DNA of 64,000 bases from positions 87,912 through 151,911 of the forward strand of contig DAHVLZ010000019.1 of the NCBI GenBank assembly GCA_027320085.1. Direction: 5' to 3'. This stretch comes from Pseudomonadota bacterium (lineage in GTDB: Bacteria; Pseudomonadota; Gammaproteobacteria; JAKAQQ01). Position 1 is the stretch's first letter. The number at the start of each line of letters is the position of its first letter. A program made the translations under genes and the position numbers. Below, in pieces: positions 2,414-35,405 of the stretch. Under the pieces are notes generated by a model, which saw only the letters and a program-made list of their open reading frames with translations, did not search any database and was not told the DNA's origin.

Positions 2414-3706
2414 ATGATCCGGGTGGGGACGCTTCCCCAAAAGTTTGCGGGAATGCTCCGGCTCCCGGGCAGCAAGTACGTTGCCAATCGTGCCTTCCTC
2501 ATGGCTGCACTCGCCCGGGGAACCAGTGTGATCGAAAACGCCCCGGACAACCAGGACATAGAACGGGCGCGTGATTTCGGTTTTTTCCTCGGTGCCGATC
2601 TTTGCCGGGACGGGGAGGAGTGGCTGGTTCGAGGTGTTGCAGGATGCCCGGAATGGAGAAAACCAAAGGTGTTTTTCTGTGGCGAGAGCGGGACCCTGGC
2701 CCGCTGGGCTTTGGCCCTGGCCACACTGTCTTCAGATCCGATCCGGCTCGAGGGTGCCCCGCGACTCCAGGAACGGCCGATGGCGGAACTGGTGTCTGTG
2801 CTCATGAACCTGGGTGCGCGGATCGAGCCGGAAAACGCAAGGGGATTGCCGCTTTCGATATCGGGACCCCTGCGCGGTGGACGGGTGACGCTTTCAGGAC
2901 AGGTCAGCAGTCAGTTTGGCAGCGCCCTCCTCACGCTGGCACCCCTTTTGCCGGAGGGGCTGGTCATCGATTTCACCCATCCCCCCGTTTCCCGGAGCTA
3001 TCTCGAACTCACGCTCGAAACCCTGCGGACCTTTGGCGTCTCGGGAAGATGCGATCCGGACTGGCATCTCGAGGTTCCGGGCGGACAGCACTACCGGGCG
3101 ACCCGCATCCGGATTGACCCGGATCCGGTCCTCGCGGGCTACTTCATGGCGTTGCCGGCCGTACTGGGCGGCAGCCTCCACCTGCCCGGCTTTTTCCCCA
3201 AGGATGCGGGTGAGGGGAGAGTGGCCACGCTCCTCTCCCGCATGGGTCTGTCGGTCCGCGCCGGCGCGGAGGGTCTCACGGTTCTTGCCTCCGGAGAACC
3301 GCTCTGTGCCTTGGGGACCGTGGATCTGTCGGATGCGCCCGATGGGGTCCCCACGCTGGCCGTTCTCGCTGCACTGGCGGAATCCGGGACCACCCGGTTT
3401 ACCGGCATCGGTCATTTGCGGTACAAGGAATCCGACCGGCTCCTGGATCTGGCCCGCGAGATGGTCGCGGCGGGCCTCAACGTCCGGGTCGAGGCCGGAG
3501 ACTTGGTCATTCACGGGGGCGGGCGATTGCAGCCGGTGGTTTTGGACGCGCATGGGGATCACCGGCTGGCCATGAGTTTTGCCCTACTGGCGGTGGCCTG
3601 TCCCGGGCTTTCCATCCGCGGGGAAGCCAGTGTCGGGAAGTCTTCCCCGGATTTCTGGCGTAGACTCGAATCCCTCGGTATTTCCTGGGTTCCCGCCCGT
3701 GACTGA
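2414..3706 (+). CDS. aroA: 3-phosphoshikimate 1-carboxyvinyltransferase (EPSP synthase).
   Basis: The N-terminal LPGSKYVANRAFLMAALARGTSVIEN matches the AroA LPGSKSxSNRALLLAALA signature. Length is 430 aa, with an enolpyruvyl transferase fold pattern. Confidence 0.8.
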   Translation: MIRVGTLPQKFAGMLRLPGSKYVANRAFLMAALARGTSVIENAPDNQDIERARDFGFFLGADLCRDGEEWLVRGVAGCPEWRKPKVFFCGESGTLARWALALATLSSDPIRLEGAPRLQERPMAELVSVLMNLGARIEPENARGLPLSISGPLRGGRVTLSGQVSSQFGSALLTLAPLLPEGLVIDFTHPPVSRSYLELTLETLRTFGVSGRCDPDWHLEVPGGQHYRATRIRIDPDPVLAGYFMALPAVLGGSLHLPGFFPKDAGEGRVATLLSRMGLSVRAGAEGLTVLASGEPLCALGTVDLSDAPDGVPTLAVLAALAESGTTRFTGIGHLRYKESDRLLDLAREMVAAGLNVRVEAGDLVIHGGGRLQPVVLDAHGDHRLAMSFALLAVACPGLSIRGEASVGKSSPDFWRRLESLGISWVPARD

Positions 3707-13558: not shown

Positions 13559-13589
13559 TCCTGGTCCCTGAACCGGGTTCTCGCCTCAG

Positions 13590-13694
13590 TCACTCAACGG
13601 CTCAGAGGATCTGCGGTTCCGGTTTGAGGTCGAGCCCGAAATTTGAACGGACGGATTCTTGGATCCGTTGGGCGAGTGACCAGATCTGGGCGCC
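13590..13694. repeat. A 105-bp perfect direct repeat (copy 1), identical to the murB 3' end plus 12 nt of downstream flank.
   Basis: Positions 13590-13694 match 14891-14995 exactly (tcactcaacggctcagaggatctgcggttccggtttgagg...cagatctgggcgcc). Confidence 0.9.
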
Positions 13695-13744
13695 CGGGGT
13701 CGAACCATAAATTGATGAGAACCAGGTTCAGGATTGGGAGATCC

Positions 13745-13975
13745 CGGATCCCCGGGATCTGGCTTGGGTTCCCGGATTCGGCGAGCCGAGCGGCACGAGC
13801 CGGCACGCGAAAGGTGTGATGACGGTCGAGTGGGGCATCCGGCCAGAGCGTGGGGTTCGAAGATCGGGACACTGTTGGGACGTTCTCTGGACAGCCTGAG
13901 CTGATTTCCGGTTCGGTCCGCCAGATGTAGAGCTGCAGTTGGGGGCGATTGGGGCGTCGAATCACTGAGCCTGCC
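13745..13975 (-). pseudogene. Diverged partial duplicate of the murB 5' region (about 60 codons) plus a diverged tRNA-Val 3'-half remnant. It is fused to repeat copy 1 and is nonfunctional.
   Basis: Positions 13790-13890 align at about 80% identity with 15830-15930 (cggcacgagccggcacgcgaaaggtgtgatgacggtcgag...). Positions 13939-13975 (ttgggggcgattggggcgtcgaatcactgagcctgcc) resemble the tRNA-Val 3' half. ORF 13594..14100 translates as a MurB N-terminus (SRSSNPTLWPDAPLDRHHTFRVPARAA...) and then loses homology. Confidence 0.6.
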
Positions 13976-14162
13976 ATGCGGGAGGCAGGAAACACCAAAA
14001 GTACCCCAAGTTTTATAGGGACCTGAGCTGCACGAAAGGGCCCGGTCAGCGACCCGCTTGCACCGGATTTGTACCGGTCATCACCAGCCAGATGTCTCAA
14101 GGGACATGGTCAGGGACATGGTCAGGATTGATGTTTCGTAATCATTCGATTACAATGCAGCG

Positions 14163-14462
14163 ATGACCTACTCGGTGAAGCTGCTCGGTGAGTTTTCTGA
14201 CTGGCTTGCAGGCTTGAAGGACGGACTGACAAGACAACGCCTCGTCAAGCGTCTTCGTAAAGCGCAACTGGGCAACCTTGGCGATGTGGAGCCGGTAGGA
14301 GGAGGTGTATTTGAAATGCGCGAGCATTTTGGACCTGGATGGCGTATGTATTATGTTCAGCGCAGTAGAACGCTGATTGTCATGCTGGCAGGTGGCGACA
14401 AGACTACGCAACAGTCGGACATTGAGCGGGCCATTGCGTTTGCAAAGTCGCTGGAGGATTGA
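14163..14462 (+). CDS. Type II toxin, RelE/ParE superfamily (HigB-like addiction-module killer protein).
   Basis: It is 99 aa. The C-terminal LIVMLAGGDKTTQQSDIERA and the GNLGDVEPVGGGVFEMR motif are typical of the killer-protein family. A 4-nt overlap with the downstream antitoxin suggests translational coupling. Confidence 0.8.
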   Translation: MTYSVKLLGEFSDWLAGLKDGLTRQRLVKRLRKAQLGNLGDVEPVGGGVFEMREHFGPGWRMYYVQRSRTLIVMLAGGDKTTQQSDIERAIAFAKSLED

Positions 14463-14779
14463 TCATGGTTCATAAAGTCAAAGTCTCTGAGCTTTCAGAA
14501 CTCGACGTATCTGAGTACCTGGATAGCGGGGAAGATATCGCCGCCTATTTGACCGCTGTTCTGGAAGAAAACGATCCGGCGCTGCTAGCTGCAGCCTTGG
14601 GCGACATTGCCCGCGCCCGAGGAATGACTCAGGTGGCCAAGGACGCTGGCATCACTCGCGAAGCCTTGTATAAGGCACTTCGACAAAACAGCGAACCGAG
14701 ATTTGAAACGATCCAACGGGTTTGTACCGCTTTGGGTGTGCAACTGGTAGCACAATCCATGCACTTGCGTCATGCTTGA
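14459..14779 (+). CDS. Type II antitoxin, HTH (XRE)-type addiction-module antidote protein (HigA-like).
   Basis: It is 106 aa. The helix-turn-helix segment reads MTQVAKDAGITREALYKAL. It is encoded after the toxin, which is the reversed higBA gene order. Confidence 0.8.
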   Translation: MIMVHKVKVSELSELDVSEYLDSGEDIAAYLTAVLEENDPALLAAALGDIARARGMTQVAKDAGITREALYKALRQNSEPRFETIQRVCTALGVQLVAQSMHLRHA

Positions 14780-14890
14780 TGCGCACAACAGGCGACCAAT
14801 CCACCCGCGTGAAATTTTATGCGAGGGGTGTCCGGATTCCGGAGGAACGCTGTGCCTCTGGTGCAAGGTTGATGCAGATTCTTGTGCCAT

Positions 14891-14995
14891 TCACTCAACG
14901 GCTCAGAGGATCTGCGGTTCCGGTTTGAGGTCGAGCCCGAAATTTGAACGGACGGATTCTTGGATCCGTTGGGCGAGTGACCAGATCTGGGCGCC
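14891..14995. repeat. A 105-bp perfect direct repeat (copy 2). It covers the last 93 nt of murB plus 12 nt of downstream flank.
   Basis: Identical to 13590-13694. Confidence 0.9.
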
Positions 14996-15931
14996 TGTTG
15001 CCGTGCCATGGTTGACGAGAACGAGAGCATGCTGGGGTGAGACGCCCGCATCCCCCTCCCGGAATCCCTTCCACCCCGCCCGTTCGATGAGCCAGGCTGC
15101 GCTCACCTTCTGGCCTGACGGACTCTCAAAGACGGGGAGGTCGGGAAAGCGATCACGGAGCGACTGGACGCGCTCCGGTGTCAGGATGGGGTTCTTGAAG
15201 AAACTTCCTGCATTCCCGATCTCGGCCGGGTCCGGCAGCTTGCGTCGCCGTAGCCGGATGATGGCCTCGGCGACAGTGCGGGCCGTGGGAGGATCGGCCT
15301 GCAGGGCGGCCAGTTCCTCCCGGAGGCCGGGATAGTCGATCCGGAGAGCGGTCTCGAGGCCCAGCCGGAGCTCGATGGCGGTGATGATCCACCGGTCGGG
15401 CTCCCTCTGGAAACGGCTCTGGCGATAGCCGAACCCGCAAGCTTCCCGGTCCAGTCGCCGCCCCTGCCCGGCATGGCAGTCAAAGACTTCGACCGCTTCC
15501 AACACGTCGGAGAGTTCTGAGCCATAGGCGCCGATGTTCTGGACTGGCGCTGCCCCGACGCTGCCCGGGATGAGCGCCAGATTCTCGAGTCCGCAGAGGT
15601 TCCGATCGAGCGTCCATGTGACCAGCTCATGCCAGCCGACCCCGGCTTCCGCCCGGACACCCACGGTTCCGGATTCGGTGGAAAGGACTTTCGTGCCCCG
15701 GTTCCTCAGGATCAGCACCAGCCCCGGGAAATCCCGGGTGAAGAGCACGTTGCTGCCGGAGCCCAGTACCAGTCTCGGCTGGTTCCGGATTTGCGGGAGG
15801 TCCAGGATCTCCGGAATTTGATCCGGGTTTTCGATTTCGGCGAGCCAGGCAGCACGAGCCGGCACGCGAAAGGTGTTATGACGGTCGAGCGGAGCATCCG
15901 GGCTGAGCGTGGGATTCGAGGATCGGGACAT
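14903..15931 (-). CDS. murB: UDP-N-acetylenolpyruvoylglucosamine reductase.
   Basis: ORF 14903..16084 trimmed to MSRSSNPTL.... The longer N-terminus reads through the tRNA remnant. MurB motifs are present: LVLGSGSNVLF, LENLALIPGSVGAAPVQNIGAYG, GNAGSFFKNP and AAWLIERAGWKG. Confidence 0.85.
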   Translation of the reverse strand: MSRSSNPTLSPDAPLDRHNTFRVPARAAWLAEIENPDQIPEILDLPQIRNQPRLVLGSGSNVLFTRDFPGLVLILRNRGTKVLSTESGTVGVRAEAGVGWHELVTWTLDRNLCGLENLALIPGSVGAAPVQNIGAYGSELSDVLEAVEVFDCHAGQGRRLDREACGFGYRQSRFQREPDRWIITAIELRLGLETALRIDYPGLREELAALQADPPTARTVAEAIIRLRRRKLPDPAEIGNAGSFFKNPILTPERVQSLRDRFPDLPVFESPSGQKVSAAWLIERAGWKGFREGDAGVSPQHALVLVNHGTATGAQIWSLAQRIQESVRSNFGLDLKPEPQIL

Positions 15932-15998
15932 ATTCCGGTCGTCCTCGTGGGCAGCCTGAGCCGACTTCAGGTCTGGTCCGCCCGACGATGGTGCGGTT

Positions 15999-16047
15999 TG
16001 GTGGGCGATAGTGGGATCGAACCACTGACCCCTGTCGTTGTGAAAGC
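15999..16047 (-). other. tRNA-Val 3'-half remnant (acceptor and T-arm down to the anticodon loop). This is the distal att site of the tRNA-Val island.
   Basis: tggtgggcgatagtgggatcgaaccactgacccctgtcgttgtgaaagc compares with the intact tRNA-Val at 26218-26266, tggtgggcgatgcaaggttcgaacttgcgacccctgccgtgtgaaagc. The T-stem changes are compensatory. Confidence 0.75.
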
Positions 16048-16414
16048 TCACTGGGGTCGGCGTCCAGTATGGGTTTTCAGCCAAATCAACGAGTTAGGAC
16101 AGCACAAAACCCACCTAGCAACACATTTTACACGTCGAATTGTACCCAAAGTGTACCCAAATGTCTTGGCGTCGTAGGGGCACCGGGCCGGACCCGGCGG
16201 CGAATTTTTCCGGGCCCTTGTCAGACACGCCGGGGCCGCCTGGACGGGGAGCAGGCCGAACAACGGCGCGTAGCGCCGGCGGTAAGGCCGTATCTCCTGC
16301 ACAGTAGGAGCTTCGTCGCCTCTCGGCGCCGAAGGTGTACCTCGTGCGGTTTATCAGCAGGAGCCATCTCCGCGAATTTTTCCCGTGGCCTAAGAGCACC
16401 TCAGTCCAATAACT

Positions 16415-16660
16415 GTGGTAACCAGTATGCCCAAAGCAACCCTCGACGCCAAGCAGCTGGCGGAAGTGCTACACCTGAACGCCCGCACCATCACCAATAA
16501 CGTCCTGACTCACCCGGAACGGCTACCGTCCTTCGTGCGTCTTCCCTCCGGGAAGACCATCTGGTTTGAGGAGGACGTCCAGGCCTGGCTGGAGGAGCGG
16601 CGTGTCCAGGTGTTACCGACGCAGCGACATCCAACCGACTTTAGCCGCAGGTGGTGGTAA
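16415..16660 (+). CDS. AlpA/Xis-family phage-type DNA-binding regulator or excisionase.
   Basis: It is 81 aa. The segment LAEVLHLNARTITNNVLTHPERLPSFVRLPSGKTIWFEEDVQAWLEERR fits the AlpA family. It lies inside the island near the distal att site. Confidence 0.65.
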   Translation: MVTSMPKATLDAKQLAEVLHLNARTITNNVLTHPERLPSFVRLPSGKTIWFEEDVQAWLEERRVQVLPTQRHPTDFSRRWW

Positions 16661-17009
16661 TGGGGTCGGCCCGGGAAGGCCAGGCATGCGGTAGGCCCGA
16701 CGTTGAGGCGTGGCTGGCAGCCTTGACTGTGCGCGCCACTGGCCGCAGGCAGCCCCGCAACCGAACCAGCCACCGCCGGCCCTGACCGGCGAGGCGGCAA
16801 TTTGGGATAAGTATAAATAGCGGCGAATTGGAGCGCACCCAGAGGGCGCTTCGTCGCTCGCTGTGCCGATGTGGCAGTTCTGGAGATTGAGCGGTTTGCC
16901 GATAAGTACTGATAACAGTAGACTCGGAGAGCGTGGATTCGCGCACATTGGGGTTAACTTACCTTGCCGAAACATCTATGACTTCAGCGTACTTTTTCGC
17001 TAGCTAAGG

Positions 17010-17692
17010 ATGCGGAGAATTCAGCGCGTGACGTCCAAGACTTCGACTACGCGCGGTACTGGCAGCCCAACAGTCCTTCCAGCTCTGTGTCATGGGAGTA
17101 ACTCCTTGAGCAGCCTTTTTGTGTTGTCTTGGGTGAAGCTGGCATCGGTAAGACCACCGAATTTCAGGACCGAACCAGTAGGCTTCAGGAGGAAGGCAAA
17201 GCGGCCTTCTTTGTACCCCTCGATATTGCCGAAAATGAAAAAGCCTCTTCGGTCGGCTTGCCAGGGGACTGTACCCTTTCAACATATGGCAGGCGGGAAC
17301 AGACGTCGGCTACTTTTTTTAGATGCAGTCGATGAAGCGCTCTGGCGAAAAATGCCGACCTCGAAGTGGCACTCGAAAATGTGGTCCACCAGATAGGCTC
17401 TGTCCCAGGTGCTCTTGCCCGTGCCCGATTCATAGTGTCGACCCGTATAGGTGACTGGTATACACGAGGCGTGCCAGACACTGTCGGACAATTTATCGGC
17501 CACACATCCAACGGCAACCAGGCAACTTCGGTCGCGCCGCTTGTGTATTCCTTGAACCCATTGTCTGCAGAGGATGCAAAAGCTCTGGCCAAGTTTTATG
17601 GCGCTATTGACGCGAACTTGTTTTGGCGAGAGGTAGAACGGGTCGTGTCGCAAAAGTGGTGGAAACAAAAGTGGCGTAGTCTCCGAGATTGA
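17010..17692 (+). pseudogene. 5' portion of a P-loop NTPase gene. It is frameshifted and interrupted by an IS256-family insertion.
   Basis: A Walker A motif (LGEAGIGKTTEF) and a Walker-B-like motif (LLFLDAVDEA) sit in different frames. GC content is lower here. The fragment ends at the IS junction. Confidence 0.5.
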
Positions 17693-17699
17693 AAACCAA

Positions 17700-18960
17700 C
17701 GCAATCACGGCGTGACAAGCGCCGAGGAGGCTACGCCATGCGGAACCCTGGCACGGGACCGACAGATTTGCTGGAGGGAAGCGAGTGGCTCGATCCGCTC
17801 GAGCAGCAGGTGCTGCTCCGGGGTGCGCCCGTTCCTGCCGGAGCTGATTGAGCAGGAAGTGACCGAGGCGCTGGGACGGCTTCGGCACGGGCGGGACAAG
17901 GGCGACGGGCACCGGTCCCGGACGGTGATGGGCTCGTTTGGCCGGGTGGAACTGTCGATGCCGCGGGCCCGGGTGCGTGGTGAGGAGGGTTGCAGCCGTG
18001 AGTTTCACAGTGCGTTGCTGCCGCGCGACCAGCGTCTGACGGGCTCGGCGAGTGCCCTGATGGCCGGAGCGTACCTGGCGGGGGCGAACACCCGGCGGGT
18101 GCGCTTGGCGCTGGGGAGACTCTTTGGTGGGGCGGTGGGCAAGGAGACCGTCCGTCGTGCCTGGCACCGGGTGCGGGAGGACTTCGAGACCTGGAACCAC
18201 CGCCGCCTCGAGGGCGAGCCGATCGTGCGGCTAGTCCTCGATGGCACCGGGGTGCATGTGCGCCTGGACGGGGCGAGCACGGCCTTGTCGATCCAAGTGG
18301 CCCTGGTGGGGGTACGGGCCGATGGGCCGAAAGTGCTGCTGGGCTTGCGGGCACTGGCCGGAGAGAACTAGGCAGCCTGGGCCGATCTGCTCGGGGACCT
18401 GGAGTCCCGAGGCCTGAAGACCCCCGAGCTGGTGATCATCGATGGCGGCAAGGGGTGGGAAGCGGCGTTGGCCGCCTGGTGGCCCCGGGTACCGGTACAA
18501 CGCTGTACGGTCCACAAACTCCGAAACCTCATGGCCCATGCCCCGAAAAAGCTGCATGAGGAGATCAGCGCCGACTACCACGCCATGATCTATGCCGAGT
18601 CGGCCTCCCAGGTGCTCGCCCGGCGGCAGGCCTTCCTGCGCCAGTGGCGCCTGCGTTGTCCCGGAGTGGCCCGCAGTCTCGAGGAAGCCGGCGAGCGGCT
18701 GTTCACCTTCCTCCGCTATCCTCCCACCCAGTGGAAGCCGATCTGCACAACCCATGCCATCGAACGACTCCACCTGGAGTTCAAGCGGAGCATCCAGACG
18801 CAGTGCATGCTGCCCTGTGCCGACACCGCCTACATGATGTTCTGGGCCTTGCTCGCCAGCGGTCAGATCACGCTGCGCAAGGTGACCGGCTGGCAGATGC
18901 TTCTTGCCCCCCCACCCGCTTGACCTCGCCGCATGACCCGTGCAAGACTTAACCCGTCTG
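17700..18960. mobile_element. IS256-family insertion sequence with a degenerate transposase. Boundaries are approximate.
   Basis: Transposase homology covers 17712..18923. Imperfect terminal inverted repeats are suggested by ggcgtgacaagcgccgaggagg at 17709-17730 and a related reverse-complement sequence near 18925-18950. Confidence 0.65.
17712..18923 (+). pseudogene. IS256-family (mutator-type) transposase. It has an in-frame TAG stop at 18369-18371 and probably an N-terminal frameshift.
   Basis: Two ORFs (17712..18371 and 18432..18923) lie in the same frame, separated only by TAG. The translation EN*AAWADLLGDLESRGLKTPELVIIDGGKG shows conserved IS256 transposase blocks: RVELSMPRAR, VRLVLDGTGVHVR, CTVHKLRNL and LRYPPTQWKPICTTHAIERLH. 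Confidence 0.8.
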
Positions 18961-19015
18961 GAGACCATCCGTCAATTTCTACCAACTTCCGGACACAACC
19001 CCCACCACATCGGCA

Positions 19016-19902
19016 ATGGCGCCCATAATCGAAAGCGTGTACGCATTCTTTCACAGAAACATTTCTCGTGAACACGACATTCGCCACAAGAGCGGCGAGG
19101 CCTATTCACCCGGCGAACGGGACATCGCACAATCCGTGCGCGACAACTTGGCTGTACACCTCGCGCGCATACCAGGTAATGCGCCTCACGAGAGCCTTCG
19201 TCGACTGGCAGTCAGTGCTAAAGACCGGCCAGAAGAAGTGGGCCTCCAGGCCCTTCTGCGCAACCACGCCTCCGAGGGAGCGGCACGGCTGGTGCTTCGT
19301 GAGCCCAAGGACATCCCGCGCTTAGGGGACGTGTATTGCCGGGAACTACGGTCTGAGGCCGAGTTGTTTGAAGTCGTTCTTGCGCGCCTAGAAGCCATAA
19401 AAGACAGTGTCGAGTCCGGCCGGTTCAGTGAGAGGGTGTTATTCGAGCGCGGTATGGAAGAAAAAAGCTGCAGACGTGGCTCGCGGCGCGGCTTGAGGAG
19501 GCATGCGGCCGGCACGCGTTTGGGGTTACGCGGGAGTTTGAGGGTGACGAAGGCAAGAGGCCGGATATTCACATCCATCATGCAAAGGGAGCGGTCTGTT
19601 TGGAAATCAAGCCCCTGGATAAAATGCGCTATACGCATAAGAAGCTGCGAAAGGCGTTGGAAAGACAGCTTGTCGACCAATACATGGGTAGGCGCAATAG
19701 TCGTCATGGTATTCTCATGCTTTTTCTATTAGAGAGTCGAACGTGGCAACTTCCAAGAAATGGGCGAGCGGATTTCAACGAGCTCCTGGTCTTTATACAG
19801 GAATGCGGAAATATGCTCGCCAAAAACAGGCCGGATGTCGAGATTCTTAAGGTCTTCGGTATTGATTGTACCGAGCGTCACGTGCCGGTAGTAGTGTGTT
19901 AA
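19016..19902 (+). pseudogene. 3' portion of the same disrupted P-loop NTPase gene, with at least one internal frameshift.
   Basis: ORFs 19016..19732 and 19600..19902 overlap in different frames. They lie downstream of the IS, with low GC content. Confidence 0.4.
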
Positions 19903-20023
19903 GAGAACAAATCTGTGAAGGCGGACACAGGGTCACAGGGTTTAGGTTTGTGGCACCAAGAATACCCCCGTGTCTAGCGACAAACTAAGAACGAAACAAC
20001 GAGAAAAACGAGAGGAGGACCAC

Positions 20024-21205
20024 ATGAAGCTGTATATTACGTCGCCGGCGAAGGCAGACGCAGGGGTAATAGGTGTCTATCGGAGGGCGTTTCGGGAGGC
20101 TACGGAGCTCTATCTTGTTTCCGCTTATCTCACAGCGTGGACGGATATCCCGAAATTAAACAGAGCGTGCAAAAGCTTCACCATGATTATAGGCAAGGAT
20201 TTCGGTATTACGCGCAAGGCAGCATGTAATTCAGTTGTGGATTGGTTACCGAAGAGATTTCTGTCGAATTTCATGGTAGCGGATGGAATGGCGGGGTTCC
20301 ACCCGAAGGCGCTTTTCTGGAAAGACAGTTGCAATGGGAACCACATGCTTGTAGGGTCGTCGAACATGACAGAAGCGGCAATGTCAGGGAATGTAGAAGC
20401 TAACGTGTACCAGCTCATTACACGGAAAGAGTTTGATAGAGCGCGCCTATGGGTTGGAGGCCTGGCGCAACATTCAGTACCGGTGGCGGGGGGCTGGCTC
20501 GCCAGGTACAGGGAGGCATCAAAATGGCCTTCTGGCGGCGGAGGTAGGCGAAAGCAGATGGTGGGGGAAAAGGAAGGCGTCTCCGTTATGCCGTTGACCT
20601 TGCCAGACCCAACGGCTGGTAAAGAAATGATTGGGGGCCGAAAATCGCAGATAAAAGAGTTCGAACATAACAGAAGGAAGTTTCTACATATGCTCCGCCG
20701 GCGCGTTGCAGGAAAGACACGTAATGTTGATGTATACAATAGTATGTTAAATCTATGGGGCATTATGGCATTTCAATCGCAGCAATGGACAAGGAGTGGG
20801 CGGCGGAGCAACTGGAAAGCGTTTGCGCGGGCCTTTCTGGAGGTTTGCGATGCCAGAGATGAAGAGCGGGATGAAGTCGTGCGGGCTCAAAAGGACTTGT
20901 TAAAGAAAAAGAAGGTACCGACGCGCGGGTCTGTGTTTGCGGAATTGCTGTGCCACTATTTTCCAGATTTGTATCCTGTGTTAAACGAGCCTGTCGGAGA
21001 ATGGGCGAAGCGGGTAGGATACAGGGCGCCTCGTGGAGCATCGGAAGGAAATCGGTATCTTCTTCTTGCAAAAACACTCCGTGCCGCGCTTGCGCAAAAG
21101 CCCAGAAACTATCCCGCTAAAAATCTCGCGGAGCTGGACATTTATATTTGGGCTTACATAAAAAACGAGCGGGATAAAAAGAAAAGAAGACGCAAGAGTA
21201 AATAG
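20024..21205 (+). CDS. Phospholipase-D-family nuclease with a single HKD motif (Nuc/BfiI/NgoFVII-like fold) and a Lys/Arg-rich C-terminal tail.
   Basis: ORF 19970..21205 trimmed to MKLYITSP..., preceded by an AGGAGG ribosome-binding site. The HKD signature reads FHPKALFWKDSCNGNHMLVGSSNMT (HxK(x)4D(x)6GSxN). The gene ends 52 nt upstream of hsdM. Confidence 0.75.
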   Translation: MKLYITSPAKADAGVIGVYRRAFREATELYLVSAYLTAWTDIPKLNRACKSFTMIIGKDFGITRKAACNSVVDWLPKRFLSNFMVADGMAGFHPKALFWKDSCNGNHMLVGSSNMTEAAMSGNVEANVYQLITRKEFDRARLWVGGLAQHSVPVAGGWLARYREASKWPSGGGGRRKQMVGEKEGVSVMPLTLPDPTAGKEMIGGRKSQIKEFEHNRRKFLHMLRRRVAGKTRNVDVYNSMLNLWGIMAFQSQQWTRSGRRSNWKAFARAFLEVCDARDEERDEVVRAQKDLLKKKKVPTRGSVFAELLCHYFPDLYPVLNEPVGEWAKRVGYRAPRGASEGNRYLLLAKTLRAALAQKPRNYPAKNLAELDIYIWAYIKNERDKKKRRRKSK

Positions 21206-21257
21206 GGAGTGCAGTGTATATGAGGATTGCGGGGGGCTCTAAGTTGGATGGCGGCAT

Positions 21258-23062
21258 ATGAATTTCTCTGAACTCGCCAACTTCATCTGGTCTGTGGCAG
21301 ACCTCCTGCGCGGTGACTACAAGCGCGCCGACTACGGCAAGGTCATTCTCCCCTTCACCCTTCTGCGGCGTCTCGAGTGCGTCCTTGAGCCCACCAAGGC
21401 GAAGGTACTGAAAGAATACGAGAAGCGTAAGAGCGAGGCGGCGCTCGAGGTGCGTCTCGCGCGCGCAAGCGGTCAGATCTTCTGCAACACAAGCCCCTTT
21501 ACGCTGTCCGCGCTCTTGGATGACCAGAAACACATCCGGCAGAACCTCACCGCCTACTTGGGCGACTTCTCGGCCGAGGCCCGCTATGTCTTTGAGAACT
21601 TCAGGTTCTTGAACCGCGTAGGGGAACTCGAGGAGAAGAACCTCCTCTTTCTCATTGTCCAGAAGTTCGCCGCCATCGACCTGCACCCCGACGGGGTGCC
21701 GAACGAGATGATGGGCCAGGCCTTCGAGGACCTCATCCGGCGGTTCGCCGAGGACTCCAATGAGACGGCCGGTGAGTACTTCACGCCCCGGGACGTCATC
21801 CGCCTCATGGTCCAATGCCTGTTCGCTGAAGACAGCGACAGTCTCTCCCGCCCAGGTGTCATCCGCTCCCTCTACGACCCGGCGGCGGGCACGGGTGGGA
21901 TGCTCTCCATGGGGCAACTGGCCCTCCACGAGATGAACGACAAGGCCAAACTCGCCCTCTTTGGCCAGGAGCTGAACGAAGAGTCCTACGCCATCTGCAA
22001 GGCGGACATGCTCATCAAGGGCCAGGACCCGAACAACATCCGCCCGGGCAATACGCTCTCGGCGGACGCCTTCCCCGACGAGCGATTCGACTACGGGCTC
22101 TCCAATCCCCTGTTTGGAGTCGACTGGAAGAAGGTCCAGGAGGCGGTGAAGACCGAATACGAGAAGAAGGGCTACGGGGGCCGCTTCGGGCCGGGACTGC
22201 CGCGCATCTCGGACGGGGCGCTCCTCTTCCTCCTGCATCTCATCTCCAAGATGCGGCCAGTATCTGATGGCGGGGGCCGCATCGGCATCGTGTTGAGCGG
22301 CTCGCCCCTCTTTACGGGGGATGCCAGCTCCGGCGAGTCCGAAATCCGCCGCTGGATTCAGGAAAACGACTGGCTTGAGGCCATCATTGCGCTGCCCACC
22401 GACCTCTTCTACAACACGGGCATTGCCACCTACATCTGGATACTGGATAACGACAAGCGCAAGGACCGCAAGGGTAAGGTCCAGCTGATTGACGCCACCC
22501 GGATGTACGCCAAGATGAAAAAGAGCCTAGGGAGCAAGCGGGCCACCATCACGGACACCCAGATTGCCGAAATCGTGAAGGTCTACGGGGACGGTCAGGA
22601 AGGGGGCCACCTTCTCAAGCGAATACCAGGACAGCAAGACGAACGGCAACGGCACCCCCCGAACCCGAGGCCCCGCGGGTGGTCTCCAGGGTCTTCGACA
22701 ACGCCTTCTTTGGCTACCGCAAGGTCACCGTGGATAGGCCGCCCCGCCCCGGCACTGAGGGCAAGCCCAAGAAGGGCGAAAAGCCCTACGATAAAGAGCT
22801 GCGGGATACCGAGACCACCCCCCTTACCGAATCCATCGACGACTACATGGCGCGAGAGGTGTTACCCCATGTGCCGGATGCTTGGGTGAACACCACCATC
22901 CGGGATGAGAAGGACGGTCAGGTCGGCAAGGTCGGTTATGAAATCAACTTCAACCGCTATTTCTACGTGTACAAGCCACCCCGGCCGCCCGAAGTCATTG
23001 CGGCGGAGATTCGGGAGATGGAGAAACGCTTCCTTGAGCTCATGAAGGGGATGGTGGGGTGA
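21258..23062 (+). pseudogene. hsdM: Type I restriction-modification N6-adenine DNA methyltransferase subunit HsdM. It is interrupted by a -1 frameshift in a C6 homopolymer near 22655-22660.
   Basis: The N-terminal part (21258..22889) carries DPAAGTGGML (motif I) and SNPLFG (motif IV). The conserved C-terminal part (...PEPEAPRVVSRVFDNAFFGYRKVTVDRP...EINFNRYFYVYKPPR) lies in the -1 frame (ORF 22679..23062). Adding one C to the C6 run joins the two frames. Confidence 0.8.
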
Positions 23063-23595
23063 AAGTGTTGGCCGAGGTTCTAAATCCCGATGTGCGCCAA
23101 GCGGCTCTTGTCACGTTAGACATTGGCGGATGGCGCCCTATAGGGATTCGCGACTACCATACGCAATTGGAGGCTCTCCGAGTTACAGATGTTGTCCCGG
23201 AAGCCGTTCGGGAGCAGTTTGATGTTGCTCGCAATTTGATGTTGTATGGCTGGTTTGTGTACGAATTCTATACAGTTGCAAGCAATCATGCGCTGGCATG
23301 CTTGGAATACGGCTTGCGAGAAGCCTGTCAAATCGTAAATGGCGGCATGAACCCGTGCGCGAAAAAACCCGGACTCAGGTGTTACCTCAAGAAAGCGACG
23401 AAACTCGGATTGATTCCCGCGGGTAAGTACCATGACAAACTGGACTTTCTCCTTTCGAGTGTTCGCAATAGCATAGCCCACGGCGGCCGCACACTGCTCA
23501 ACTACGCAATGGCGATGGCAACTTTGGAGGTAGTGGCCGACTTATTAAATGACGTATTCAGTTCGGAAAGGGTCTCGTCATGTCGGCCAATATAA
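23059..23595 (+). CDS. Hypothetical protein encoded between hsdM and hsdS, possibly DUF4145-like and R-M-associated.
   Basis: It is 178 aa and overlaps hsdM by 4 nt at the GTGA stop/start. The motif VRNSIAHGGRTL resembles the R-x-IGN-AAH motif of the convergent protein at 24405..25064. There is no recognisable catalytic motif. Confidence 0.5.
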   Translation: MKVLAEVLNPDVRQAALVTLDIGGWRPIGIRDYHTQLEALRVTDVVPEAVREQFDVARNLMLYGWFVYEFYTVASNHALACLEYGLREACQIVNGGMNPCAKKPGLRCYLKKATKLGLIPAGKYHDKLDFLLSSVRNSIAHGGRTLLNYAMAMATLEVVADLLNDVFSSERVSSCRPI

Positions 23596-24227
23596 GACAT
23601 GTTGGTGTATCTGGTTCGTCCGCGTGGACCAAGCTGAAGTACGTCGCAAGAATTGGAGGTGGGGCAGGATTTCCTCCTGAAGAACAGGGTCAAACTGGCA
23701 ACGAGCTCCCGTTCTGCAAAGTAAATGCGCTCGAGTCTTCCACAAGCGATGGCATACTCTCGGCGCCTTGGGACACGGTTTCGAGTGCAACTGCCGAGAA
23801 ACTAGGGGCCCATATTTTCAAGCCGGGTTCGACCGTTTTCGCCAAAGTGGGTGCCGCGCTGTTATTGAATCGCTTCCGGCAGATTAACTGTCGTGCTTGC
23901 TTAGATAACAACAAGATGGGCCTTGAACCAGACCAGAGCCGTGTCTCACCACGGTATCTTATGTACGCCCTGAGCACAAAGGACTTGTCCATCGTCGCTA
24001 ATCCCGGAGCCGTTCCGTCGGTGAATGCTTCCCAAATTGCGGAGGAGAAAATTGTCTGCCCACCCGTCCTAGAACAAACCCGCATCGCCAACTTTCTCGA
24101 CGAGCAGATGGCGCGGATTAATGCGCTGATTGCGGAGAAGGAGAGGTTGGTTGAGTCATTGCGGGAATACAGGCAGTCATGGCTCTCGGGGCTATTGAGG
24201 TCGCCACCTGGTGGCGACGTTGCATAG
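23580..24227 (+). CDS. hsdS: Type I R-M specificity subunit HsdS, half-size with a single target-recognition domain.
   Basis: It is 215 aa. The C-terminal conserved-repeat region reads IVCPPVLEQTRIANFLDEQMARINALIAEKERLVESLREYRQS. Only one target-recognition domain is present. Confidence 0.75.
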   Translation: MSANIRHVGVSGSSAWTKLKYVARIGGGAGFPPEEQGQTGNELPFCKVNALESSTSDGILSAPWDTVSSATAEKLGAHIFKPGSTVFAKVGAALLLNRFRQINCRACLDNNKMGLEPDQSRVSPRYLMYALSTKDLSIVANPGAVPSVNASQIAEEKIVCPPVLEQTRIANFLDEQMARINALIAEKERLVESLREYRQSWLSGLLRSPPGGDVA

Positions 24228-24404
24228 CTACGAGGCCTGATACGCAAACGCACGAGATTCTGACCCTTCTGCGCCGTGGGGAGGGGTTCATCAATGACCT
24301 AGACAGCGACTTACCGTCCGAGGTCGTGGTCATGCGCGATGCGCTGGGCCGGAACCTGTGTAGAGCCGCAGGCCTCCGGTGACGCTTAACCACCAGATGC
24401 GCCA

Positions 24405-25064
24405 TTATGGGATGGGCTTTCTATTAGCGGCTATAACTTTTTTGTTAAAATCGTCCTTACGCTTTTGAGCAGCGGCGGGCGCGACGAAGAGGAAGTCAAA
24501 CAGTCCGTCAAGTACGATCAGATTCCACTCCGCTTCACCTTCCGCGACGGGCATTATTTGCCCGGACGATGCGTCTTTTAATGGGTGCGCAGCAAAGTTT
24601 CCGATCTCACGAACGCAGTGGAGTTGAGCGCCCAATTGAGACGGCAACATCTTGCCGTTGATGGCCTTCTCAATCTCATCTGACAGATTGTTTCCCTTGA
24701 TACCAAGGTTGTTTTGAAGAATGTTTTGAAGGCATCGACGGCTCAGGGCGGCGCTCGCCTTTGGACTGTCCTGTAGCACTAAGGCCGCCTCGGAGTAGTC
24801 TTCTGCAAACTCCCGCGGAACATCGGGCGGTGGGGCTGGTCGCGCAGACGCTTTTGGGTAAGCAATGAACGATTCTTGATCTACAAAAGACATGCCTCCA
24901 TCGCTGTAGTGCTTTACCTGGTTAGCGTGCACGAGAGAAATTATGACTTTTTTGCATTCTGGACATGCCTGATAAGAAACTCCCCAGTTACTGTCTGCAT
25001 CTCGGAGAAGGTAGTGCAATTGCGGATGGTTAAAAAAAGCTGTGCGGCAATGCGGACACACCAT
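24405..25064 (-). CDS. Zinc-ribbon protein with a DUF4145-like C-terminal domain, commonly found near type I R-M loci. Function unknown.
   Basis: The N-terminus has CPHCRTAF...CPECKK. The C-terminus reads HCVREIGNFAAHPLKD...EAEWNLIVLDGLFDFLFV. Confidence 0.5.
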   Translation of the reverse strand: MVCPHCRTAFFNHPQLHYLLRDADSNWGVSYQACPECKKVIISLVHANQVKHYSDGGMSFVDQESFIAYPKASARPAPPPDVPREFAEDYSEAALVLQDSPKASAALSRRCLQNILQNNLGIKGNNLSDEIEKAINGKMLPSQLGAQLHCVREIGNFAAHPLKDASSGQIMPVAEGEAEWNLIVLDGLFDFLFVAPAAAQKRKDDFNKKVIAANRKPIP

Positions 25065-25079
25065 ATGGTTTCCTCCTAT

Positions 25080-26081
25080 CTAGCCTAGTAGTGCAGCTAG
25101 GTCTTCTGCCCTTAGGTGAGTATAGCGTTTCAACATCTGCAACGTCTTGTGTCCCGTGATGGCGGCCACCTGCATCGGGTTCAGACCCCGCTCAAAGAGT
25201 CGGGACGTGGCCTCGTGGCGCAGATCGTGGAACGCCAGGCTCTCGATCTTGGCCTCGGCACAGACGCGCTCAAAGGCTTGTGAGATCGAATCTGGCCGCA
25301 TGGCCCAGACCTCGCCGTCTATGCGCCGTGGGAGAGCATCTAAGACGGCCAGGGCGCGGGTAGAGAGCGGCACACGCCGGGGCGTTCCCGTCTTGGTTTC
25401 CGGGATCAAAAGCACCCGGGCTCGCTGGTCCACATGCTCCCACCGCATGGCGGCGATCTCGCCGCGGCGCATGGCGGTCTCTATGGCCCAAGTGATGATC
25501 GGGCCGATCTGCCCGCCGTAGGTGGTGGCTTCTTCCAAGAGCTGCTTTCCCTCGTCGCTGACCAAGCGACGGTCGCGGCCGGGTGGCAGCTTAGGGCGCT
25601 GGCTTTTCACAATGTCCACGGGGTTCGAGAGGGATTCCATGCCCCATGCCGTGCGGGCGGTATTGAACAAATGGGAGAGAAGGTTGAGCTCTTTGTGGAT
25701 TGTCGCCGGTGCGGCGTTTTCGCCGGCGCGTTCGCGCACGTATTTCGCCATGTCTTTCCCTCTGATGACGGCGAGCGGACGAGATGCGAGCGCGTGACGC
25801 TGCCAGCGCTCGATCCGAAAACGCTCGACCGCCGTGCCTCTCTTGCCAGGTGTTATCTCCTGCGCGTAGCACTCCAGAGCCTCGCGCAGGGTCGTGCTCT
25901 CGGCCTCCGCGCGGGAGACGAACACGCCGCGCCTCATCTCAGATTCGATGGTGGTCGCCCAGGTCTCCGCCTTGTCCTTGCTGTCAAACGTGGCGGTTTG
26001 CTGAGGGTAACCCCGCCGGCGAATGAGGACTTGCCATACCCGGCGGCCGCCAGGGCCTTTGCGCGAAACGTAGGTCGCCAT
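25080..26081 (-). CDS. int: Tyrosine-type site-specific integrase (phage integrase family).
   Basis: ORF 25080..26171 trimmed to MATYVSRKGPGGRRVWQ. A C-terminal catalytic region (AFHDLRHEATSRLFERGLNPMQVAAITGHKTLQMLKRYTHL) is present. It lies directly downstream of tRNA-Val. Confidence 0.85.
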   Translation of the reverse strand: MATYVSRKGPGGRRVWQVLIRRRGYPQQTATFDSKDKAETWATTIESEMRRGVFVSRAEAESTTLREALECYAQEITPGKRGTAVERFRIERWQRHALASRPLAVIRGKDMAKYVRERAGENAAPATIHKELNLLSHLFNTARTAWGMESLSNPVDIVKSQRPKLPPGRDRRLVSDEGKQLLEEATTYGGQIGPIITWAIETAMRRGEIAAMRWEHVDQRARVLLIPETKTGTPRRVPLSTRALAVLDALPRRIDGEVWAMRPDSISQAFERVCAEAKIESLAFHDLRHEATSRLFERGLNPMQVAAITGHKTLQMLKRYTHLRAEDLAALLG

Positions 26082-26217
26082 AACACCCCCCTTATAACAC
26101 CTTGATAACACCCATTCGCCGGAACGCGGCCGGATGATTTGCGACAACGGATTGTCGCAGGATTGTCGCAAAAGGAAGGGTTGGCTGGCTAGTTGGCTTG
26201 CTAAGTGCTTGATTTTA

Positions 26218-26293
26218 TGGTGGGCGATGCAAGGTTCGAACTTGCGACCCCTGCCGTGTGAAAGCAGTGCTCTACCGCTGAGCTAATCGCCCC
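26218..26293 (-). tRNA. tRNA-Val (anticodon CAC), intact. This is the proximal att site of the island.
   Basis: The reverse complement GGGCGATTAGCTCAGCGGTAGAGCACTGCTTTCACACGGCAGGGGTCGCAAGTTCGAACCTTGCATCGCCCACCA folds as a 76-nt cloverleaf, with CAC at positions 34-36. Confidence 0.85.
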
Positions 26294-26359
26294 GGGGCCA
26301 TCTTGCGTCTTTCGGATGCTCATCTTAACATGGCCAAACCGTCCGAGCATGCCTGCTCC

Positions 26360-29392: not shown

Positions 29393-30316
29393 TTAGCGCC
29401 AGGTCCCGCCATTCGGGTCCCATCGGCCTTTGGCGCCTTCCGGCAGCGCAAGGTTTGCGATAACAGGGCCGAAGAAGCGCCGCAGCTCCGCTTGCAGGTC
29501 GATGAAGGACAGCGGTTGAAGGGTCGGTGGATTTCGGCGCAGGAAGCCACTCCAAAGGCCGCGCTCCTCAGCAATCTTCGCAAACCTTTCCGTAAGACCC
29601 ACCGGCATTTCGCTCGGGATCGCAATCTCGCGGCGCCGAAGCGTTCCTGAGACGGCTTCAGCCAGGCTAGGTAGGTCGAACGGGAACGTGCGGGTCGTGA
29701 CCCAAATATCATGAAAATCCTTGATCCTTCCGTTCGCCTCCCCGAAGCGGATCATCGCTTCGAACTTCTCAGCCACCACGGCTTCAGGCGGGTACATCAG
29801 GATATTCGCCGCGGATAGATCTGGCAGGAGGGCTGGGAAGGTCTGCCGCGTCGGTGGAGGGTAGACATAGTCGCCAAAACCGACGTCCACATGCACGGGA
29901 ATGATTGCCTTGGCCAGTTCGCCCGTCAGGTTCAGCTGGGCGCCTTGGTACTTGTCGGCTTCGCGCACCGGCTCGACTCGCAGGCTTGCCGGGTCGAAGA
30001 CAATGCCGTCGTCGGGGGCTTGGACCTGGCAGATGCGGGTAAAGAGTTCGGTGATGGCGGCAGGGTCAGAGTCGCCCTGGCCGAGCAAGTCGAGGTCACC
30101 GGTGGGCCGGAAGGCGTGCTCGGGCCAGGTGACGAACAGCATGGCGCCCTTGAGCACATAGTGCTCGGCAGCCTCCGTCTGACTGAGCCGATAGAGCAGG
30201 CGTTCGATAGCGTAGCGCGTCAAGACTCGCTGGTAGTCATCGCGATGCTCCTTGGCATGCTGGAGCAGCCGCGCCCTGATGGATGCCGCGGGATTCTTTA
30301 GAGTCTTGCCATTCAT
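29393..30316 (-). CDS. AbiEii/AbiGii-family nucleotidyltransferase toxin (type IV toxin-antitoxin system).
   Basis: ORF 29393..30472 trimmed to MNGKTLKNPAASIRARLLQHAKEHRDDYQRVLTRYAIERLLYRL.... A nucleotidyltransferase GDLD motif is present (HYVLKGAMLF...TGDLDLLG). It shares an ATGA stop/start overlap with the upstream gene. Confidence 0.75.
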   Translation of the reverse strand: MNGKTLKNPAASIRARLLQHAKEHRDDYQRVLTRYAIERLLYRLSQTEAAEHYVLKGAMLFVTWPEHAFRPTGDLDLLGQGDSDPAAITELFTRICQVQAPDDGIVFDPASLRVEPVREADKYQGAQLNLTGELAKAIIPVHVDVGFGDYVYPPPTRQTFPALLPDLSAANILMYPPEAVVAEKFEAMIRFGEANGRIKDFHDIWVTTRTFPFDLPSLAEAVSGTLRRREIAIPSEMPVGLTERFAKIAEERGLWSGFLRRNPPTLQPLSFIDLQAELRRFFGPVIANLALPEGAKGRWDPNGGTWR

Positions 30317-30948
30317 TGCACCGCTTTGATATAGGGCGCGATCCGTTCGGTGACGCGATCGATGGCTGCGTACTTCATCAGCTCGCTCGGGGTAGTCTTT
30401 CTTTTGCGCAAGGCGTCCCGCAGCGCTTCGATGGCGACGTCCTCGCCAATATGGCGGCGATGCTTGAAGCAATCCGCTACGGTTTTTGCGACACCGTAGA
30501 TCGGCACGTCGACCCCCTCTATGCGGATGTGCTCGATGCCCGCAGTCAGGACCGCACCAGTGGCGCGAACAATCTCGAGCCGCGGATTCCGCACGTTCGG
30601 CGTCCTGGCTCCGTGAGGAATGGTCATCCAGACCGCGTGCGGCAGCTGAGTAGTCAGTTCGTGGTACCGAAGCGCACTGACGAGGCTGATCACGCCGTTC
30701 GGGGCGAGACGGGCGGCTTCAGCCAGGTCATGAGCAACGTCCTCGCCCACGCGTTCCGGGTCTTGGTAGAGGCCGCGGCCAAGCTGGACAAGGTCGCCGG
30801 CGTCGGTCAGGCGCTTCAGGTAGACCAGAGGGATGCCCGCCGCTTTGAAATCGCGTGCGCGCGCAATTCCCCTGTCATGGATGAGGCGGAGCGCGCGTTC
30901 GCGATAAGTTATATGACGTTCAGCCATTGTGTTATCTATTGTAGTCAA
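30313..30948 (-). CDS. AbiEi-family antitoxin and transcriptional regulator (type IV toxin-antitoxin system).
   Basis: It is 211 aa, immediately upstream of AbiEii and translationally coupled to it. An N-terminal winged-helix-like region is followed by a conserved C-terminal domain. Confidence 0.65.
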   Translation of the reverse strand: MTTIDNTMAERHITYRERALRLIHDRGIARARDFKAAGIPLVYLKRLTDAGDLVQLGRGLYQDPERVGEDVAHDLAEAARLAPNGVISLVSALRYHELTTQLPHAVWMTIPHGARTPNVRNPRLEIVRATGAVLTAGIEHIRIEGVDVPIYGVAKTVADCFKHRRHIGEDVAIEALRDALRKRKTTPSELMKYAAIDRVTERIAPYIKAVQ

Positions 30949-30996
30949 TAATATACATCAATCAACATAAAGTAACAGTTGATAAATTACAGGTGA

Positions 30997-31017
30997 GATC
31001 ATATAATTTTTATGATC
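30997..31017. promoter_or_regulatory. AT-rich divergent promoter region containing a perfect inverted repeat (GATCATA-TAATTTT-TATGATC) that overlaps a TATAAT -10 box. It is a candidate operator.
   Basis: Positions 30949-31011 are the only strongly AT-rich stretch in the area. The inverted repeat overlaps the annotated ATG at 31012, so an alternative start at 31018 is possible. Confidence 0.4.
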
Positions 31018-35094: not shown

Positions 35095-35405
35095 AGATCG
35101 GCGACGGCAGCAGGAATACCGCTCTGGCGAGGGGGTCGACGTCCTGTCGCAGCAGGCGCCACTGATCGATCCTACAGTCTGCGGTCGGTCCCTGATCACC
35201 CTCCACCCTGCCGCGCTTTGTGGCTCCTGCAGACGCGCGACTGTAGCGGCGCGCTATGATCGTTGGTCGGGCAGGTGTCAGCCCGATGAAGATGTCGCTC
35301 TTAATGGGTCAGGGAACCCGACGCGCCATATTCGGGTGCGAGAACCATCCTGACGGATAATAAGGTTTACACATATCAATGTGTGTGATCAAAAGGGAGA
35401 TCAAC

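Follow-up and report, generated by a model that had tools for sequence, protein, structure and literature searches.

A 10,219-bp integrative genomic island in the tRNA-Val(CAC) gene of an uncultured gammaproteobacterium, with a chimeric tRNA at one border and largely decayed anti-phage cargo

The tRNA-Val locus and its two repeat copies

Examination of a 64,000-nt stretch of DNA from the Pseudomonadota (hereafter the window; NCBI GenBank assembly GCA_027320085.1, contig DAHVLZ010000019.1, positions 87,912 to 151,911 of the forward strand; Gammaproteobacteria, lineage JAKAQQ01) reveals that the tRNA-Val(CAC) gene next to murB is interrupted by a long insert, which is very probably an integrative genomic island. 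We called tRNA genes with ARAGORN, which finds three in the window, and scored tRNA quality against the Rfam tRNA covariance model. The features that define the two ends of the insert, including the parts of its attachment (att) sites, are as follows:

26218-26292, minus strand: chimeric, functional-looking tRNA-Val(CAC) (ARAGORN; Rfam 67.3 bits; alignment)
15999-16034, minus strand: displaced native 3' segment of the host tRNA-Val(CAC), on the attR side (100% identity to the tRNA 3' end in contigs L081-L083, introduced below)
16035-16047, minus strand: tRNA-like sequence from the island that continues attP and imitates the anticodon loop (TCGTTGTGAAAGC; three-way alignment)
16141-16161, plus strand: TGTACCCAAA motif twice in tandem, some 95 nt inward of the attR end
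26140-26170, no strand: three TTGTCGCA motifs, one inverted and two direct, between the integrase gene (int) and the end of the tRNA

A repeat search places the two tRNA-derived ends in a direct repeat, 15999-16038 and 26218-26257, which by eye extends to 16047 and 26266 and thus covers about 49 nt with one 1-nt indel. The copies have in common the acceptor 3' strand with its CCA (TGGTGGGCGAT on the plus strand), the T loop bar one base, and two blocks, the 8-nt GACCCCTG and the GTGAAAGC of the anticodon loop. Four of the five base pairs of the T stem are different in the two copies, in a fully compensatory manner, with AGTGG/CCACT on the left and GCAAG/CTTGC on the right. The murB gene (minus strand; Pfam MurB_C and FAD_binding_4) starts at 15931, which leaves a spacer of 67 nt to the left copy, in agreement with the roughly 68 nt given in a preliminary description of the locus that had been made from the letters alone.

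The first 36 nt of the left copy are identical to the tRNA 3' end in three contigs with an empty site, and for this reason the copy is not a chance match. This segment comprises the CCA, the acceptor 3' strand, the T arm AGTGG/CCACT and the variable loop, including an 8-bp core at 16027-16034, and the adjoining 16035-16047 carries a single substitution and one inserted nucleotide relative to the host. The tRNA at the opposite end is composed of host 5' sequence (26254-26292), the crossover core (26246-26253) and an island-supplied part (26218-26245) consisting of the T arm GCAAG/CTTGC, the acceptor 3' strand and CCA. On the Rfam model this chimera obtains 67.3 bits, versus 65.8 bits for the native tRNA in L081. 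Minimum-free-energy folding gave a four-helix cloverleaf-like structure for the native tRNA but not for the chimeric one, and the covariance-model scores were used instead. The preliminary description had correctly noticed a tRNA-Val(CAC) beside an integrase, albeit with an end one base too far (26293 rather than 26292), as well as a direct copy at 15999-16047 with compensatory T-stem changes. However, what it took for a diverged remnant is the original 3' segment of the host, and the tRNA it called intact is not the unaltered host gene, since alignment with the empty sites reveals the T arm and acceptor 3' strand to be island-derived.

The two short motif clusters are candidate protein-binding sites. 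The TGTACCCAAA pair, comprising the only two matches in the window, might represent arm-type or regulatory sites, with a count that is not above chance and only the adjacency being suggestive. Similarly, the TTGTCGCA cluster could be a set of integrase arm sites or an int operator; it stands out by local clustering, with a window-wide count not above chance.

Empty sites and the point of strand exchange

An exact-sequence look-up of MurB retrieved three contigs (L081, L082 and L083, from European Nucleotide Archive assemblies ERZ27237410 and ERZ27237373 and from NCBI GCA_021828425.1) that encode the identical MurB and display the gene order gltX, metallo-β-lactamase (MBL)-fold hydrolase, tRNA-Val(CAC), murB, with no island and about 210 nt from the MBL gene to murB. 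The direct connection between tRNA-Val and murB that the preliminary description had anticipated in related genomes is thus observed in all three. Their flanks are 99.5-99.9% identical to those of the window by blastn, with alignments that break at 26218 and 16047 and overlap by 48 nt in the query, as expected from a duplicated tRNA 3' half. The tRNA is identical in all three empty sites and carries the T arm AGTGG/CCACT. Hence, near-identical strains are polymorphic for the insert, which is present in some members of an uncultured gammaproteobacterial population and absent from others.

A five-sequence alignment of the junctions with the empty sites shows that the left junction equals attB from murB through GACCCCTG, immediately after which it diverges as TCGTTGTGAAAGCTCAC..., and that the right junction begins to equal attB at GACCCCTG, the sequence before it being foreign. 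As both junctions switch at this block, strand exchange must have taken place inside its 8 bp (16027-16034 / 26246-26253). The insert is accordingly 10,219 bp long, so the earlier estimate of about 10.2 kb holds, as does the expectation of precisely definable borders. In tRNA sense the crossover core reads CAGGGGTC and corresponds to the 3' end of the anticodon stem plus the variable loop. The reconstructed attP, ...CTTGATTTTATGGTGGGCGATGCAAGGTTCGAACTTGCGACCCCTGTCGTTGTGAAAGCTCACTGGGG..., contains an imitation, about 49 nt long, of the 3' half of tRNA-Val that includes the anticodon-loop-like TTTCACA. Mimicry of a tRNA 3' half by attP is the usual arrangement in tRNA-targeting elements (Islander, PMC4383910).

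The exact integrase protein is also encoded on L084, a 10,451-bp contig of a further assembly (ERZ27237364), which is 100% identical to window positions 15894-26344 and includes both junctions, extending past the repeat copies into 105 nt and 52 nt of flank. Exactly 141 nt separate the start of the contig from the first island-specific base, a distance equal to the k implied by its k141 contig name, and this start point would fit a branch of the assembly graph where filled and empty alleles diverge. When species-representative genomes were scanned with MurB, the result was uninformative for the empty site: the best match was 59% identical among the matches listed, and tRNA-Val stood beside murB in none of the 37 loci inspected.

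The tyrosine integrase and a candidate excisionase

Two genes of the insert are likely to bear on its integration and excision:

25080-26081, minus strand: tyrosine integrase, 333 aa, uninterrupted open reading frame (ORF; PF00589, phrog_1)
16427-16660, plus strand: HTH_17-like protein, 77 aa, candidate excisionase or AlpA-type regulator, at the island end far from int

The integrase gene lies directly downstream of the tRNA, 136 nt from its 3' end. Its product is recognized by PF00589 (89.2 bits against a cut-off of 27.1, E=3.5e-25) and by the PHROG integrase family phrog_1 (E=9.5e-56), and inspection of its motifs AMRRGE, ETKTG, HDLRH, GHKT and RYTH identified the catalytic residues R205, K230, H285, R288, H311 and Y320. 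Matches in the PDB are distant, namely XerC-like proteins and the catalytic domain of HP1 integrase, and the catalytic residues are the same as those of the HP1 integrase/Rci-like branch. In a plasmid collection, the Rci-type recombinases of IncI plasmids are about 38-40% identical over 95% of the length, and the IncI2 one that we inspected is located beside the pilV shufflon. Whereas Rci inverts shufflon segments, the genomic context of the island enzyme points to integration at a tRNA.

The integrase has more than 7,800 homologues, the closest of which are 70-78% identical and include proteins from Acidiferrobacter and from metagenome-assembled genomes (MAGs) of Acidiferrobacterales. The genomic contexts of five relatives were read. 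In the 77% and 75% relatives (L085 and L086), int is positioned directly downstream of a 46-nt partial copy of the tRNA-Val(CAC) 3' part with an AGTGG/CCACT arm. These partial copies (L085:340-386 and L086:9831-9877) thus bear the native T arm of the window's host; no intact tRNA was found at either, and the sites look like the attP of unintegrated elements or the junctions of tandem islands. Both contigs encode a TrwC relaxase, L085 additionally a TraG/VirD4-type coupling protein and L086 a primase, with a RepB primase and DUF3987 being among the element genes of the pair; on L086 the genes for the TrwC relaxase, the primase and an HTH_17 protein are situated on the other side of the partial tRNA-Val copy. 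The 69% relative, from Acidiferrobacter thiooxydans, is found beside tRNA-Lys(TTT) along with an MmeI-type restriction-modification (R-M) system and AAA_15 genes, and the 70% relative (L088-L091) beside tRNA-Asn(GTT) along with patatin/iHKD and type ISP R-M genes. The contexts of the five relatives therefore indicate that the clade integrates at tRNA 3' ends, switches its target between close relatives and travels with interchangeable cargo. We infer that the adjacent integrase catalyzed the insertion, because of where its gene lies, because its catalytic motifs are uninterrupted and because its closest relatives are associated with tRNA-Val.

The AlpA-like regulator of the preliminary description corresponds to the 77-aa ORF, whose match to Pfam HTH_17 lies below the cut-off (19.7 bits against 27, E=0.001) and which is matched by the PHROG family phrog_66, 'excisionase and transcriptional regulator' (E=1.7e-6). 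On L094, a contig of an Acidiferrobacterales MAG (JBTSRE010000031.1), an HTH_17 ORF that adjoins a related integrase shares 63% identity with it. A single-sequence AlphaFold2 model is of low confidence (predicted local distance difference test score of 51.6), with an H-H-E-E-H topology. We suggest that this protein could be the excisionase, or directionality factor, of the integrase and that the island may still excise.

Anti-phage cargo and its decay

The remainder of the insert is occupied by the following genes and gene fragments:

17000-17692, plus strand: N-terminal remnant of a NACHT-type NTPase gene, pseudogene (three-frame translation; weak NCBIfam EruA/HyoA NACHT matches)
about 17693-18967, plus strand: IS256-family insertion sequence, GC 0.67, ends approximate (PF00872 on both halves)
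19016-19902, plus strand: C-terminal remnant of the same NACHT gene (NCBIfam NF058534 HyoA, E=2.8e-22)
20024-21205, plus strand: HKD (phospholipase-D-family) nuclease-like protein, 393 aa, single motif, uninterrupted ORF, GC 0.51
21258-23062, plus strand: hsdM pseudogene, type I methyltransferase (Pfam HsdM_N and N6_Mtase)
23059-23595, plus strand: 178-aa protein, no assigned function, frame overlapping the end of hsdM and the start of hsdS
23580-24227, plus strand: truncated hsdS, 215 aa, first target-recognition domain and central conserved region (PADLOC)
24405-25064, minus strand: RAZR/PD-T7-4-like protein, 219 aa, uninterrupted ORF (PF13643, PADLOC PD-T7-4)

The NTPase gene seen in the preliminary description is a NACHT gene that survives as two remnants. 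The N-terminal one retains a Walker A motif (GEAGIGKTT), a Walker B motif (LLFLDAVDEA) in another frame and an RFIVSTR motif, along with in-frame stops. Its C-terminal counterpart matches positions 1146-1306 of the 1430 of HyoA, has an additional frameshift and terminates with a PD-(D/E)xK-like tail. In the likeness of this region to HyoA and in their NACHT NTPase motifs the remnants resemble the bacterial NACHT (NLR-related) anti-phage proteins HyoA and EruA. However, about 500 of some 1430 codons are left, split by a dead IS256-family element and marked by stops and frameshifts, and the HyoA score of 78 bits compares with a cut-off of 1200, well short of a full-length NACHT NTPase; about 900 codons are missing between the remnants, beside the insertion sequence. 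The latter encodes a Mutator-type DDE transposase (PF00872 on its two halves with E=2e-22 and 5e-26) in a frame, 17712-18923, that contains a single in-frame TAG at 18369-18371; its alignment with a 397-aa transposase from L086 stays in one frame. The search for terminal inverted repeats gave nothing convincing, and no second copy of the element is present in the window or in the fetched loci.

The HKD protein displays the motif GFHPKALFWKD...GSSN. Its direct matches are weak and comprise PLDc_2 (18.6 bits against a cut-off of 27), NgoFVII, ZacB, DrmC and the N-terminal domain of SauUSI (7clg). It belongs to a large family of proteins of about 380 aa that bear source names such as 'HKD family nuclease', and precomputed PF13091 matches exist for many of its homologues (up to 47% identity), though not for the closest.

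The adjacent hsdM and hsdS are clearly homologous to known type I R-M subunits. DNA alignment of hsdM with an intact orthologue of 602 aa from L094 locates two indels, one of +1 near 22595 and one of -2 near 22654, and once these are repaired conceptually the PADLOC MTase_I score is 830 rather than 710 bits. Sequencing error is an unlikely source of these frameshifts, as the identical sequence occurs in the independent contig L084 and two indels separate it from the intact orthologue. The hsdS product matches positions 24-208 of the 434-aa PADLOC specificity-subunit profiles and therefore lacks the second half, and no ORF in 16035-26253 has a match to HSDR_N, ResIII or a helicase, leaving the module without hsdR. 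On L094:5600-14754 an intact version of the same module encodes the HKD protein, HsdM (602 aa), HsdS (409 aa) and HsdR (1056 aa), with several HEPN and unknown genes between hsdS and hsdR and with MTES_1575 and HEPN_AbiU2 genes upstream; its HKD gene and hsdM are 74% identical to the window copy at the DNA level. As encoded, the R-M module of the island cannot work as a type I system and is a truncated, inactivated copy of the L094-type module. The idea that the HKD nuclease replaces HsdR is rejected, since L094 combines the HKD gene and hsdM with full hsdS and hsdR, and homologues of the HKD protein also stand alone in unrelated contexts.

The frame between hsdM and hsdS overlaps both neighbors, as in translationally coupled genes. 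Its 178-aa product matches nothing in Pfam, PADLOC, NCBIfam or PHROGs. The 15 homologues found, none of them annotated, form a family of 170-180 aa, and on L099 the corresponding gene (3100-3609) likewise overlaps the hsdM stop codon. To judge from these sequence neighborhoods, the protein may be an uncharacterized accessory of this type I methyltransferase lineage.

Next to int lies a gene for a 219-aa protein with an N-terminal Cys4 zinc ribbon (C3/C6/C34/C37) and a C-terminal, HEPN-like DUF4145 domain (PF13643, 52.4 bits against a cut-off of 23.1; PADLOC PD-T7-4, E=1.3e-20), the latter containing R152 and H160. RAZR (PD-T7-4) is a ring-activated zinc-finger RNase in which R146 and H154 are reported to be catalytic (PMC13017515). 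The island protein reproduces this domain order and the spacing of the two residues; however, it is a remote homologue. The integrase, the excisionase (Xis)-like protein and the RAZR-like protein all match PHROG families.

The frames of the HKD nuclease-like gene, the RAZR-like gene, the integrase gene and the Xis-like HTH gene are uninterrupted. The GC content of the island segments ranges from 0.50 to 0.67, as compared to 0.60-0.63 in the flanks; this mosaic, in which the lower-GC segments reported earlier reappear, fits a patchwork origin of the cargo. With regard to content, the preliminary description had correctly listed the integrase, the IS256 transposase, hsdM and hsdS, and its phospholipase-D-family nuclease has the weak direct matches given above. 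Of its two small R-M-associated proteins, one is instead the homologue of the stand-alone defense protein RAZR/PD-T7-4. The term defense-type island describes the kind of cargo well, but this cargo is largely pseudogenized.

Source of the imported T arm

The island segment with the GCAAG T arm was found again on two metagenome contigs of the Joint Genome Institute (JGI), L092 and L093, each of which holds a partial tRNA copy without an intact tRNA. These exact GCAAG-arm copies of the tRNA-Val 3' part (L092:3811-3856 and L093:45-90) stand on unrelated contigs of lower GC; one of the two contigs has phage-like ORFs, for example for a terminase-small-subunit-like protein, and L092 is a phage-like contig. 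A scan of viral contigs with the island att segment yielded no match. The JGI matches were rejected as the donor tRNA or as the attP of this island, being partial tRNA copies on unrelated contigs. The GCAAG arm is thus a recurring variant of the att site that other mobile elements seem to use as well.

Integration model and alternative explanations

Together these observations make us highly confident that the 10,219-bp insert is an integrative genomic island that its own tyrosine integrase placed in tRNA-Val(CAC) by site-specific recombination. The earlier classification as a tRNA-targeted integrative element is thereby sustained, with the tRNA, the displaced 3' fragment, the adjacent integrase and the empty site all being present. 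In the model we propose, the attP mimic of about 49 nt would derive from a tRNA lineage whose T arm was different. Strand exchange occurred inside the 8-bp identity block in the 3' part of tRNA-Val. The tRNA was thereby kept intact, with its T arm and acceptor 3' strand (the last 28-36 nt) now coming from the island, and the host's original 36-nt 3' segment was moved 10.2 kb away, to the murB side. The cargo is a patchwork of anti-phage modules of differing GC, most of which are inactivated.

Several points weigh against this interpretation or against parts of it. The scan of the JGI metagenomes did not recover an intact native tRNA-Val with a GCAAG T arm, by which the donor lineage could be recognized. 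The attP of this island did not turn up in the scans of JGI metagenomes and viral contigs; L084 has no terminal overlap, so that this island-sized contig represents the integrated form; and no excised circle was found. The island contains no transfer, replication or packaging genes. The excisionase assignment depends on sub-threshold or remote matches. Finally, the empty sites fit a never-occupied and an excised state equally well.

The last point admits an inverted history, in which the island is ancestral and the empty contigs arose when the integrase excised it or the 49-nt repeats recombined with each other. Precise excision would restore exactly the attB seen in L081-L083, the integrase and Xis-like ORFs are uninterrupted, and the heavy decay of the cargo suggests long residence. 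Such excision is nonetheless compatible with the island reading, of which it reverses the direction only in some lineages; insertion must have come first, given that the displaced copy has the native T arm, and identical empty sites with near-identical flanks fit a recent polymorphism in either direction. We regard an ancestral island with empty contigs derived from it as rather improbable. That the junctions are an assembly chimera, with a foreign contig joined at a tRNA-like repeat, could be entertained because metagenome assemblies can mis-join at tRNA repeats and the GC of the island is heterogeneous. It has practically no standing against L084, an independent assembly from another sample that spans both junctions at 100% identity, and against junctions that are exact reciprocal recombinants of attB and a tRNA-like attP.

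A different question is what kind of element was inserted. Instead of a dedicated defense island, it might be the stripped-down remnant of an integrative mobilizable or conjugative element, a phage or a satellite. The closest integrase relatives reside in elements with a TrwC relaxase, a TraG/VirD4-type coupling protein, a RepB primase and DUF3987; moreover, three island proteins fall into PHROG families and the phage-like contig L092 bears the same tRNA-Val segment. On the other hand, there is no relaxase, coupling protein, replication, capsid or terminase gene between 16035 and 26253, and the viral-contig scan for the att segment was empty. This origin appears possible but doubtful to us; within the preferred reading as an integrative island, the element may be a reduced relative of the relaxase-bearing elements on L085 and L086.

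Comparison with other tRNA-gene islands and significance

A scheme of sublocations within the tRNA gene is reportedly due to Williams in 2002. Unlike in other tRNA-gene islands, the crossover here falls in the block made up of the variable loop and the 3' side of the anticodon stem, not in the anticodon or T loop, the imported T arm is unlike that of the host at four of five base pairs, and the host is an uncultured gammaproteobacterium. In other respects the element resembles the Islander-type islands of tRNA and tmRNA genes: an integrase beside the regenerated tRNA, a displaced direct 3' fragment at the far end, an island-supplied 3' segment, an empty site in relatives and endpoints defined to a few bases (PMC4383910).

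The element is of a well-known kind and nothing about it is mechanistically unexpected, although the integrase clade and the host lineage are poorly studied. With attB, attL and attR all available, the crossover could be placed within 8 bp, making this a textbook-quality natural case, with a regenerated tRNA that carries a heterologous T arm distinguished by four compensatory pair changes. It also documents an integrase clade (about 70-77% identity) that occupies tRNA-Val, tRNA-Lys or tRNA-Asn with differing cargo, in a host that the names of homologues weakly suggest to be Acidiferrobacter-like. The current understanding of such islands is unchanged; the value of the case lies in a well-bounded annotation and in a source of att-site/integrase pairs for surveys, and it illustrates how fast resident defense cargo erodes.

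Other features near the tRNA-Val locus

Downstream of the present murB, at 13587-13988, we observed a degenerate, internally deleted copy of the murB 3' end, the murB 5' end with the 67-nt spacer, and the tRNA-Val 3' half, which is collinear with 14888-16047. Within it, 13587-13725 matches 14888-15025 at 91% and 13725-13925 matches 15781-15985 at 79.5%, and the local alignment of 13939-13988 with the 3' half of the native tRNA scores 22, whereas the highest value among 2,108 background tiles was 15. A HigB/HigA-like toxin-antitoxin pair (14163-14779) separates this relic from the real murB. As the empty-site contigs have the same arrangement, the relic is older than the 10.2-kb island.

The relic suggests that this tRNA-Val site had undergone an integration or a duplication before. 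One conceivable scenario, which we consider improbable, is that the tRNA-Val locus was used at least twice and that the earlier event perhaps replaced the essential gene murB. An older element that excised imprecisely in a previous host would have carried off the tRNA 3' half together with murB; on integrating here it would have introduced a foreign murB, and the resident copy would have decayed afterwards. Alternatively, the unit may have been duplicated locally in tandem, after which the toxin-antitoxin pair was inserted and one of the two murB copies decayed.

On the other side of the island, beyond gltX and the tRNA-Ala/tRNA-Glu genes, window positions of about 29400-35100 (L081:1057-6758) encode a 1360-aa HTH_3 protein and an AbiEi/AbiEii toxin-antitoxin-type pair. 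This stretch constitutes a second defense-rich region near a tRNA cluster and is common, at 99.8% identity, to strains with and without the island.

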